Part shown: one piece after another, positions 2,112-24,854 of the stretch
How positions within the stretch are numbered: position 1 is the first letter of the stretch
How the letters are laid out: every line of letters starts with the position of its first letter
Assembly: GCA_030149205.1 (NCBI GenBank)
Contig: JASBSB010000001.1
Span: 90,001-122,000 of the forward strand
Length of the DNA: 32,000 nucleotides
Reading direction: 5' to 3'
DNA from: Candidatus Heimdallarchaeota archaeon
GTDB taxonomy: Archaea > Asgardarchaeota > Heimdallarchaeia > Heimdallarchaeales > Kariarchaeaceae
The notes under the pieces: model-generated
What the model was told of the DNA's origin: nothing
Seen by the model: only the letters and a program-made list of their open reading frames with translations
Database searches by the model: none
Position numbers and translations under genes: made by a program

Positions 2112-3617
2112 TTATAGAAGAGGGAGTTGTGATACCCGTTGTGATATAAGTTCAATAAGATTTGAATCTATTGTAAAAATTCCTTCACAGTTTTCAAATG
2201 TACGCTCAAATGTAAGAAATGCAAGAGAATTGTTTTTCCCATGAATTATAAGAAAATCATAAAGATTCAAAAAAGCTTCTTCGTTAATTTGATCAAGAAT
2301 GGTAATGTTGTTTGTAAATTCAACATTTACTTGACCTGCAGAGAATAAATTAATTGTATGAGCACTCACATTATTCAAGGTCTGATACAAATCAGATAGA
2401 TCAATTAGATCTGAATTTATTGAAACATCAATTTGAAATATCTCAAAATCTGATGAGTTAAAAGAATTTAATACCTGTACAAAGGATTTAATGAGTTCTG
2501 TTTTCTCAATCTGAATGAAAACAGTTGGTTTCTGGTTCAATATTTGATCGTTCTGACCTAGTTTAAAGTATTCGAGTAACGATAGCAGGAAAACCGAGTA
2601 CCTTGCTTTAGGGCTAATTTTTTCTTCTGTGACTGTGTCATAAATCAAAAATCGGTCTTCCTCAATGAGGATCTCCAAGAATTCATCCTCAATTGTTTCG
2701 ATAAATGTAAAAACTTGTCCAAAAATCCCCTGCCTATCCAAGTTCTTGACCTCCCTTTCCAACATCTCTTGTATTAATGGAGAAAGTTGAGAAAACAAAT
2801 CGTTGGTCAAACTCAACTCGAGAATTTTAAACATATCAGAGGAAATGTTTCTTTCATCGTTAAAGTTCGGCAAAGTTTCATCAGCTTTGTTTTGAGTTAA
2901 TAGTTTGAATGAGTTTTGAACAACTAAAGCCCACCAAGATATCCCTGAATAGGATTTAGAATTCTTGTAAAAGATTGGTTTAAGCCACCATACACTGTCA
3001 TCATCTTTAATGATAGCGCCCTTACTCTGAAGCCCTAATGGTTTATGAAGGATCTCAACTGCATTTTTCCAAATTTTTTGATCTGATAATGTTAATGGTC
3101 TGTCTTGTCTCTCACTGATATTAACAACCCAGCTTTCTTCTGTGAGTAATCCAACCCTATCAATAAATGAATATTTTTTAAAGTAGTTTTCAGTTATATC
3201 ATTAATTTTTGCAAGATAGAGTGGGTTAGAGGGCAATTTTTCTCCAAGTACTCTGTGGAGTTTGTTAATTAGGTTATTTAGTATCCCTCGATCTCCGAAT
3301 GAATTAAATATTACTTCTTTGTTGTCTTGAATAACCCTTAGAACATTTTTTAATAGGATATCCACTCCACCTTGACTCATCTGATTAGTGACCCTTATAG
3401 TAACAAGGATACCCCCCGTTCTACCATAGACTATGGTTGAGTCTTCATACACTTCCTTTTGTAGAGTTTCACCCGTTGCTTCCTCACCGAGCATGTCTTG
3501 GACAGAAATTCTACCAGCTTTTAAAACACTGTCAGAGTCTTCTTTATTCTCTTGATTTAAATGTAAGACCGGAACAGAATTCGCAATAATAAAGACTTCT
3601 AGGACGTCTGAGTGCAC
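2112..3617 (-). CDS. Longin/roadblock-like multidomain protein (putative small-GTPase regulator)
   Basis: The N-terminal ~125 aa follow the longin beta-beta-alpha-beta-beta-beta-alpha pattern (VLEVFIIANSVPVLHL...DSVLKAGRISVQDMLGEEATGETLQKEVYEDSTIVYGRTGGILVTIRV). The C-terminal ~100 aa follow a roadblock-like pattern. GTG start. Confidence 0.55.
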   Translation of the reverse strand: MHSDVLEVFIIANSVPVLHLNQENKEDSDSVLKAGRISVQDMLGEEATGETLQKEVYEDSTIVYGRTGGILVTIRVTNQMSQGGVDILLKNVLRVIQDNKEVIFNSFGDRGILNNLINKLHRVLGEKLPSNPLYLAKINDITENYFKKYSFIDRVGLLTEESWVVNISERQDRPLTLSDQKIWKNAVEILHKPLGLQSKGAIIKDDDSVWWLKPIFYKNSKSYSGISWWALVVQNSFKLLTQNKADETLPNFNDERNISSDMFKILELSLTNDLFSQLSPLIQEMLEREVKNLDRQGIFGQVFTFIETIEDEFLEILIEEDRFLIYDTVTEEKISPKARYSVFLLSLLEYFKLGQNDQILNQKPTVFIQIEKTELIKSFVQVLNSFNSSDFEIFQIDVSINSDLIDLSDLYQTLNNVSAHTINLFSAGQVNVEFTNNITILDQINEEAFLNLYDFLIIHGKNNSLAFLTFERTFENCEGIFTIDSNLIELISQRVSQLPLL

Positions 3618-3877
3618 AAATAAATTGTTGTTTTCAGAGTTTAAAACTTCTTAGGAGATGAAATATTGAAAAGTTGAAGGAAATATTTGTAGGTTACATC
3701 CCTAGGGTTTAAAATTAGTCTATAAGTTATCTATTTGCCAATTCGAGGGCTGCTCGAGGTATCAATGAGAGTCAGTGCAAAATTGGCGTTACCTTCCATT
3801 TGAATATTTACCCAATATAGGTTAATTCAATCTTAACTTAATTTTTCTTGATATTGTAATATTATTCAAAGTCTTAG

Positions 3878-3983
3878 TATATATGTGAATTATTAAGAAT
3901 TAATGTGAATGTTTAATGTATTCGAATGTATATATATGTGAAATATTAGGAATTAAAGTGAATGTTTAATGTAATTGAATGTA
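3878..3983. repeat. Tandem direct repeat, 2 x 53 bp (48/53 identical), overlapping the dnaG 3' end
   Basis: 3878-3930 tatatatgtgaattattaagaattaatgtgaatgtttaatgtattcgaatgta versus 3931-3983 tatatatgtgaaatattaggaattaaagtgaatgtttaatgtaattgaatgta. Confidence 0.95.
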
Positions 3984-23042: not shown

Positions 23043-23564
23043 ATGTCGTTCGACAACACCATTAGAGTAAAAACTGTTTTACTTGGGGACGGCCGAGTTG
23101 GTAAAACGAGTTTGGCAGTTAGATATGCACAAAATCGCTTTGCCAAAAATTACAAACCCAGTCTTGGCGTGGACTTTCTGATGAAACGGGTACGTATAGA
23201 TGACAAGGATATCAAGATCCTGGTGTTCGATACGGCGGGTCAACCCACTATAAAAGCCCTTAGAACAAAATATTATACTAAGGCTAATGGTGCTGTTGTA
23301 GTCTACGATGTCACACGACGTGAGACATTCAATAATATTCCAAAGTGGTTAAAAGAAGTAAAGGACGAGGTTGGGGAAATCTATACAATCGTTGTCGGGA
23401 ATAAGACAGACCTTAAGGATGAGAGACAAGTAAGCAGAGAGGAAGCAGAAGAATTTGTTAAAGAAATTGGTGCAGATTATTTTGAGACATCAGCCCTTAG
23501 CGGAGAGAATGTTGTAGACTTGTTTGAATCCTTTATTTACTATGTATTGGATTTGCTTAATTGA
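23043..23564 (+). CDS. Rab-like small GTPase (Ras superfamily, eukaryotic signature protein)
   Basis: G1 GDGRVGKT, switch I YKPSLGVDF, G3 FDTAGQ, YYTKA, VVYDVT, G4 GNKTD, G5 ETSAL. No C-terminal Cys. Confidence 0.93.
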   Translation: MSFDNTIRVKTVLLGDGRVGKTSLAVRYAQNRFAKNYKPSLGVDFLMKRVRIDDKDIKILVFDTAGQPTIKALRTKYYTKANGAVVVYDVTRRETFNNIPKWLKEVKDEVGEIYTIVVGNKTDLKDERQVSREEAEEFVKEIGADYFETSALSGENVVDLFESFIYYVLDLLN

Positions 23565-23609
23565 CATAATACCCCAGTATTCACTTTCTATTTATAAAAT
23601 CGAATACAA

Positions 23610-24854
23610 GTGAGTGTACTAGGAGAACAAGGTCAATCAATGCTTCAAGAGGAATCAATTAATGAATCCAGTCAAATCAAATCTTTCTCAATATTATTCT
23701 CCAAATTAATTACAATATTTCAATTCTGTGTTTTCATTTTTTCATTTATATTTTTTAGTTCGGTCGATTCTACATCTACAACATTTCTCTTCTTATGGAT
23801 GATGTACTTCGTATCAATAACTGTAATTTTGGTTCTAAATTTAGTGAAAGCCAAGTCTATAATTGAACATTTTGTAGATCGAAGTTTAAAGTTTAAAAGA
23901 AACATAATTCTATCCACCCTAATTCAAGAGCTAGTTGGTTTGATATTTCTTTATTTCGTTATTATTTCACTTCACCTGGCATTAGTAAACAAGATCATCA
24001 TTAGCTTTTATGGAACAAAATTAAATATATCAAGCATATTTCTTGTAATTTTATTGGCTGGTGCTCTAAGATATCTTTTTTTTCTACATCCATATTTTTC
24101 TATGATAACAGGTTCTGTGGTTTTACATAAAGATATCAGAGTTGAAAAGTTAAATGTTTACAAATACAAATCAGTCCAAATGTTTGGAATAGTACCATTA
24201 CTAGTGTTAGCATTCCCAATAATTGATCACAATCCCTTCACCAAAAGTTACTCAATTTTACATCTTTTTTTAATTCTCATCTCAGGAATTTCAATGCTTG
24301 GTCAGATGATATTAGAGAACAAGTATTATCAATCACTCTTAAAAGACCTATCAGTTCAAGTAAAAAATAATGCGCCTAGACCAGTTCTCCCCTCCTTGAG
24401 TGAAAACAGTTTCCCCTTGTTAAACACATTAGGGATTAGTCAACTGGGAAGTGGATTGAGAAAGTCAAATCAAACTAGACCAACAATAAAAACCATCAGA
24501 CCAACATTCGCTCAGAGACCTTTAGAATTCTTTCAGAGTTTTAGCACCTCAGCAAACAGAGATGAATCAATTCCTGAAAATCCAAATTATGTTTCACAGC
24601 CTAGGGTGGTCAAGGAATTAGAACATGTTAAGAAAACTATAATCGATAAGATTGCAGCGAAGATATTAAATGAGAGAGAAAATCCTCTGAAAATGAAAAA
24701 AGATTTAGGATACAGTAGTTTTTTTGATACAGATCCTTTAATTAAAACTGAAAGTTTTGACAGTTTAAATCAGGTATTTTGTGTTGAATGTGGTTCAAAG
24801 TTACCGACGGAATATAGTTTTTGTAATATCTGTGGGAACCAACTTAAACTCTAG
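23610..24854 (+). CDS. Multi-pass membrane protein with a low-complexity linker and C-terminal zinc ribbon
   Basis: About 6 TM segments in the first ~235 aa, a P/S/R-rich linker and a terminal CVECG...CNICG. Confidence 0.75.
   Translation: MSVLGEQGQSMLQEESINESSQIKSFSILFSKLITIFQFCVFIFSFIFFSSVDSTSTTFLFLWMMYFVSITVILVLNLVKAKSIIEHFVDRSLKFKRNIILSTLIQELVGLIFLYFVIISLHLALVNKIIISFYGTKLNISSIFLVILLAGALRYLFFLHPYFSMITGSVVLHKDIRVEKLNVYKYKSVQMFGIVPLLVLAFPIIDHNPFTKSYSILHLFLILISGISMLGQMILENKYYQSLLKDLSVQVKNNAPRPVLPSLSENSFPLLNTLGISQLGSGLRKSNQTRPTIKTIRPTFAQRPLEFFQSFSTSANRDESIPENPNYVSQPRVVKELEHVKKTIIDKIAAKILNERENPLKMKKDLGYSSFFDTDPLIKTESFDSLNQVFCVECGSKLPTEYSFCNICGNQLKL

Follow-up and report, generated by a model that had tools for sequence, protein, structure and literature searches.

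A 23-kb stretch (positions 2112-24854) of a Heimdallarchaeia genome raises the question of whether six eukaryote-like genes, interleaved there with housekeeping genes, encode a single trafficking and cytoskeleton system. The stretch lies in a 32,000-nucleotide segment, C4:90001-122000, that was analyzed at its full length (the window), in a genome of 3.3 Mb in 12 contigs that is 93.5% complete and in which open reading frame (ORF) calling gave 2909 genes. In an earlier sequence-only reading of this DNA, a longin/roadblock-like protein, two Rab-like GTPases, a long coiled-coil protein, a gelsolin and a membrane zinc-ribbon protein had been proposed as regulator, switches, effector, actin modulator and membrane anchor of one pathway. 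The six ORFs named there are all present at the given positions, and five of them, rather than the four originally counted, sit in 9.1 kb (15745-24854). The only actin gene of the genome is on a different contig.

Our analysis indicates that the stretch is most likely an ordinary core-genome region that holds one old two-gene module and four recently joined signature-like genes. The module consists of the gene for a short gelsolin protein with a C-terminal domain X (GelX) and of the gene for a Rab-like GTPase, here named GTPase B. We give a probability of about 0.6 to the reading that these two genes form a small GTPase-actin module and that the rest of the stretch consists of recent neighbors. 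In the following, the families of the class Heimdallarchaeia are labelled f1 to f7, with f1 being the family of this genome (Kariarchaeaceae) and f5 presumably corresponding to the Hodarchaeales; Candidatus Heimdallarchaeum aukensis is a relative from the same order.

GelX and the Rab-like GTPases

The GelX gene (22237..22860, minus strand) encodes 207 residues, with a gelsolin domain at positions 1-87, a flexible linker and domain X at about 130-207. The modelled gelsolin domain, in which the WxG motif is conserved, superimposes on Thorarchaeota ProGel (7c2f) with a Z score of 11.7 and an rmsd of 2.2 Å over 83 residues, which bears out the gelsolin assignment. The linker is modelled with low confidence, and the conserved C-terminal domain is modelled as beta-rich, with weak Cache/PAS-like structural matches (Z 5.1 or less). 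Across both domains, GelX aligns (HHalign 99.8%) with P0081, a 304-residue protein of Thorarchaeota SMTZ1-83. Since 1DGelX was cloned from the same assembly, we infer that P0081 is the cloned Thorarchaeota 1DGelX, which is described as severing and nucleating actin without calcium control (Akil et al. 2020, PMC7444086). The B35_GelX protein of L. ossiferum is reported to cluster with the Thorarchaeota GelX, and Lokiactin to co-precipitate with an Arf GTPase and with five gelsolin proteins (bioRxiv 10.1101/2025.11.30.690169). 1DGelX and B35_GelX have the same architecture as the GelX of the window: a single gelsolin domain and, after a long linker, a C-terminal domain X. The protein described here differs from both by its length of 207 residues, lacking a C-terminal tail some 50 residues long, by a domain X that is modelled as beta-rich and not as the coiled coil initially predicted, and by having a Rab-like GTPase gene instead of a roadblock gene as its neighbor. 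The GelX gene neighborhood is not mentioned in the accessible parts of either source.

Gelsolins with domain X were detected at a strict threshold in 212 of 268 Asgard genomes. The short forms make up one clade (support 98), which is a Heimdallarchaeia-specific paralog clade; they stop at an ELW motif and lack the C-terminal helical tail of the GelX of about 290 residues, and short GelX is thus a truncated variant of the Asgard 1DGelX/GelX. The present genome holds four gelsolins, including a long GelX paralog on contig C7 with a roadblock gene directly downstream. GelX was duplicated in this lineage, the short copy having kept the GTPase partner and the long copy the roadblock partner. The tail was also considered as a predictor of a roadblock neighbor and was rejected, as tail-less proteins of family f18 keep the roadblock gene and tailed proteins of f5 are without it. 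In one genome (G042, locus L026) the GelX frame is interrupted by stops and still lies beside GTPase B, owing either to an assembly error or to a pseudogene.

GTPase B (173 residues; 23043..23564, plus strand) is separated from the divergent GelX gene by an AT-rich spacer of 182 bp (22861..23042), and a scan for bacterial promoters gave matches at chance level. The second Rab-like GTPase of the window, GTPase A (174 residues; 18116..18640, minus strand), is conserved at 62-89% within the order and belongs to a clade separate from B. Both are clear members of the Ras family (Pfam Ras 168 and 180 bits) and rank first (B) and fourth (A) among the 27 matches of the genome. The best PDB match of GTPase B is the Thorarchaeota Rab 7ezb (E 5e-39), with eukaryotic Rabs also close. 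The G1-G5 motifs and the catalytic Gln are present in both proteins, with G1, G3 (carrying the Gln), G4 and G5 intact in GTPase B and G2 represented by Ser in the B family and by Thr in GTPase A. Both proteins (ending in LLEKKG and VLDLLN) lack the C-terminal prenylation Cys that is found in eukaryotic Rab proper, so the earlier description of two tail-less Rab-like GTPases stands. In their Rab-like core, intact G motifs and missing Cys tail they resemble other Asgard Rab-like GTPases, such as the Thorarchaeota Rab 7ezb and those treated in PMC10933270. Whereas the authors of that study found it hard to match GTPases with their partners from gene layout, one of the paralogs described here has a conserved genomic partner.

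Conservation of the pair across Asgard genomes

A Rab-like GTPase gene was found adjacent to GelX, or one gene off, at 45 of 49 assessable loci and in five of the seven Heimdallarchaeia families, some of which belong to other orders; two contig-end loci were left out of the count. The pairing occurs in f1 (7/7), f3 (13/13, one with an inserted gene), f5 (13/13), f6 (2/2) and f7 (10/10). GelX precedes the GTPase in tandem in f5, f6, f7 and part of f1; the two genes are convergent in f3 and in three genus-mates, and divergent in the present genome and in G043. The tandem arrangement is the most widespread one and probably the ancestral state, from which the head-to-head layout would have been derived. 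To our reading of the literature searched, GelX and the Asgard Rab-like GTPases have each been described already, and their gene pairing was not found described there. The conserved linkage, whose absence the sequence-only reading had named as speaking against its system, thus exists, and it is that of GelX with GTPase B.

The pairing can be compared with the general decay of gene order. Among neighbor pairs of Ca. H. aukensis, only 1 of 53 on opposite strands and 35 of 111 on the same strand are also neighbors here, and 15 of 68 neighbor pairs of an f5 genome, which belongs to another order, are kept. Judged from their sequences, these 15 resemble typical operon partners (genes for ribosomal proteins, ABC transporters and pathways).

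Further components of GTPase systems recur around GelX. In f5, an MglA-like GTPase gene (E 1e-19 for the MglA-like call) lies downstream of the GelX-Rab genes, and one f6 genome (G069) has a roadblock-GelX-Rab-MglA-like run. In other Asgard classes, 18 of 26 loci have a roadblock gene directly 3' of GelX. The MglA-like homolog of the present genome is on the same contig, about 530 kb off, and the window contains neither an MglA-like GTPase gene nor a roadblock gene of such a run.

The best-surviving alternative, to which we give a real but clearly smaller chance than to the GTPase-actin module, is passive linkage: the ancestor of the class would have had GelX and GTPase B side by side in a region that rearranges slowly, and the two would have no direct functional tie, or shared expression only. 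Several points favor it or weigh against a functional module. The adjacency is missing at all four loci of f2 (one locus) and f4 (three loci), and the f4 genomes checked keep both genes, yet apart. All three orientations occur, so that co-transcription is not required, and inversion of a single gene can preserve adjacency passively. The region has loose synteny in two families, in which glutamyl-tRNA synthetase (GluRS), a conserved gene further downstream and a cluster of pilus genes have likewise remained nearby. In f5 the gelsolin partners are of the long form, outside the short GelX clade. A quick tree grouped the GelX-adjacent GTPases at SH-aLRT 88, but in a careful tree their grouping across orders was neither rejected nor supported (p-AU 0.275). 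Related genomes are not independent, which reduces the 45 loci to about five family-level observations, and the density excess of signature-like genes described below is marginal (P 0.045) even in the most generous test. Moreover, GTPase genes of MK-D1 are generally outside operons with their regulators (Tran et al. 2024, PMC10933270). Against passive linkage, the other genes of the region are not kept adjacent across orders whereas the GelX/GTPase pair is, the neighbors kept across orders in the control resemble functional partners, and GelX neighbors a GTPase-system gene (Rab, roadblock or MglA-like) in most Asgard lineages sampled.

Additional arrangements were observed in other genomes. 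A GTPase gene two genes upstream of GelX in families f22 and f23 was considered as a GTPase B orthologue and found no support from trees. Two genes upstream of GelX-roadblock pairs, a Rab-like GTPase is fused to an M20 peptidase domain in one locus (L102:5041-6876) and to a 390-residue tail without known match in another (L085:1944-3617). In one genome of another class (L098), an actin-like gene is located three genes past the GelX-roadblock pair. In f3, the GelX-GTPase pair directly adjoins a type IV pilus/Tad-like cluster (L038, L042, L044-L047); such a cluster (ATPase, two platform proteins and pilin-like genes, assigned by reading the sequences) is located in the present genome at C4:45895-55105, 40 kb upstream of the window.

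We return to the module of GelX and GTPase B. The recurrent neighbors of GelX (Rab-like GTPase, roadblock and MglA-like GTPase) all belong to GTPase switches, which suggests that GelX is gated or positioned by GTPase B. Since 1DGelX is not under calcium control, the switch of a GelX-type severer might be supplied by the partner GTPase. GTP-loaded GTPase B is predicted to bind GelX, most plausibly via domain X, and this binding would determine the place or the time of actin filament cutting; a roadblock protein may act in trans as the GTPase regulator. A bolder version has a real but lesser chance: GelX would be a direct GTP-dependent effector of the neighboring Rab-like GTPase, and roadblock-GelX-Rab-MglA an ancestral Heimdallarchaeia cassette that coupled an Mgl-type polarity switch to actin severing, as a pre-eukaryotic GTPase-to-actin pathway. 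The likeness to the Myxococcus MglA/MglB polarity switch lies in the relatives, where the GelX run includes an MglA-like GTPase gene and, in one genome, also a roadblock gene; the output here would be actin instead of gliding motors.

The reverse direction of control, with GelX acting on the GTPase as a stand-alone gelsolin-domain GTPase-activating protein (GAP), is unlikely. The idea draws on Sec23, whose gelsolin domain provides the catalytic residue for Sar1 and is absent from the Asgard Sec23-like proteins (PMC11914678). The GelX model does match Sec23a, at a Z score of 8.4, but actin-binding gelsolins score higher (Z 9-12), and the partner GTPase is Rab-like and not of the Sar/Arf type. 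Residues 1-87 of GelX contain no invariant Arg (the invariants are G9, G40 and F49), and GelX is acidic in the segment that aligns where the Sec23 match ends, the arginine finger being placed by combining the position that we take it to have in Sec23 with the range of the Sec23a match.

The other signature-like genes and the density of the stretch

The 501-residue longin protein (2112..3617, minus strand) is not part of the core module. It was confirmed to have a longin domain, which covers residues 7-99 only (leave-one-out E 1e-5; HHalign 92-95%) and is followed by a middle region without assigned domain and by a C-terminal domain (about 385-500) that aligns with the C-terminus of a receiver-GGDEF protein (HHalign 95.8%). 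This C-terminal part may be a DICT sensory domain (PF10069); no Pfam match was obtained for it. Other slices of the protein scored under 5% against longin and roadblock profiles, and no support was found for a multi-longin or DENN reading, the low confidence of the single-sequence model (pLDDT 34) leaving room for a very divergent second longin domain. The family is small, with about 15 clusters in f1, f2 and f4, and gave no matches in Pfam, PDB and NCBIfam searches. The gene and GelX are on the same contig in G044 and G043, in the latter together with both GTPases, and in f2 and f4 it is flanked by none of the genes of the window.

The protein proposed as a long coiled coil (768 residues; 15745..18051, minus strand) is a soluble helical protein with an apolipoprotein-like amphipathic periodicity of 11 residues (3.67), and it has no heptad signal of a golgin-type coiled coil. 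The power is 1.15 at period 3.67 versus 0.41 at 3.5 (shuffled sequences 0.22 ± 0.06), and a Rad50-like control shows the reverse pattern. Three further proteins encoded in the genome share the 11/3 periodicity, and two of these have a TrmB-like N-terminus; the N-terminus of the 768-residue protein gave no winged-helix profile match with a three-row alignment. This protein was found only in the genus, with a homolog search returning only the protein itself. The best ESM Atlas scores (0.77 for this protein and 0.80 for the longin protein) were uninformative.

The membrane protein (414 residues; 23610..24854, plus strand) does have about seven hydrophobic segments and a C-terminal zinc ribbon. 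The genome encodes 17 such proteins in all. This one is fast-evolving, and its counterparts, about 20% identical and recognized by position, were seen only in the genus. Proximity of GTPase A to GelX is limited to this genus and one further genus; the gene is beside GluRS in two genera only, has different neighbors in f3 and f4, and is separated from GelX by about 200 kb in both closed Heimdallarchaeum genomes. With multi-longin Rab guanine nucleotide exchange factors (Mon1-Ccz1/TRAPP) and golgin tethers, the stretch has only folds in common (longin, Rab-like GTPase and long helix); it differs from eukaryotic Rab modules by a single longin domain, a hendecad instead of a heptad helix, no prenylation and no conserved linkage of the parts.

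A census of the genome gave about 47 longin/roadblock proteins, 25 small GTPases, 4 gelsolins, 17 membrane zinc-ribbon proteins and 29 long helical proteins. With six class members among 19 genes versus 0.8 expected, the stretch is the densest of that length in the genome. The scan-corrected P, that is, the share of shuffled genomes with such a window anywhere, is 0.07 at fixed length and 0.045 at variable length (five of nine consecutive genes), values that are generous as the gene classes were set after seeing the window; it is 0.46-0.58 for strict signature classes. The density excess is mostly one linked GelX/GTPase pair, because significance is lost when GelX and GTPase B are counted once (P 0.29 or 1.0). 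The sequence-only reading had allowed for a coincidental clustering. Genomes of the genus retain the entire region apart from local flips of genes, but they also retain 25 of 36 neighbor pairs, so that linkage at the genus level is background.

A single pathway of all six genes is thus very improbable and already largely refuted: although the stretch is the densest for these classes, with its genes co-located in the genus and four of them on one contig in G043, the four genes outside the pair are not linked beyond genus or family, the longin protein ends in a part of prokaryotic sensor type, the 768-residue protein is not a heptad tether, and GTPase A has other neighbors elsewhere.

The housekeeping genes include a grpE-dnaK-dnaJ chaperone operon (12016..15748, plus strand) and GluRS (18738..20516, minus strand), which is found in the wider vicinity of the GelX pair in two families and is a marker of regional synteny. 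Between species of the genus gene order is largely kept, with in-place inversions of individual genes or of short runs (2112-7230 versus L065; 22237-26572 versus L035), which suggests frequent very small inversions. A 58-residue histone-fold protein (21593-21769, minus strand; 68-84% identity among family members) is encoded mostly beside GelX. DnaG (3953-5470, minus strand) has a long Arg/Gly/Ser/Lys-rich insert C-terminal to the Toprim domain. Downstream of the stretch are a tandem pair of nucleotidyltransferase-like genes (24936-26572, plus strand), kept in the genus, with the second copy without Pfam match; a run of MoxR AAA+, DUF58/vWA and membrane-protein genes (26593-30787, minus strand), strongly kept in the genus (up to 88%); and, after this run, a leucine-rich-repeat protein gene (31184-31942, minus strand).

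Meaning of the GelX/GTPase pairing

The window adds a negative result for the six-gene system, controls for the linkage, the orientation history of the pair and a duplication that separated the GTPase and roadblock partners. As the six-gene system is not supported, the pair is where effort belongs. Asgard genomes encode dozens of small GTPases without assigned partners, and Asgard crawling is reported to rely on actin (bioRxiv 10.1101/2025.11.30.690169). With a gelsolin-X gene that has kept a GTPase gene at its side across the class closest to eukaryotes, there is one specific pair for in vitro study, and the pairing is a hint that actin was under the control of GTPases before there were eukaryotes.

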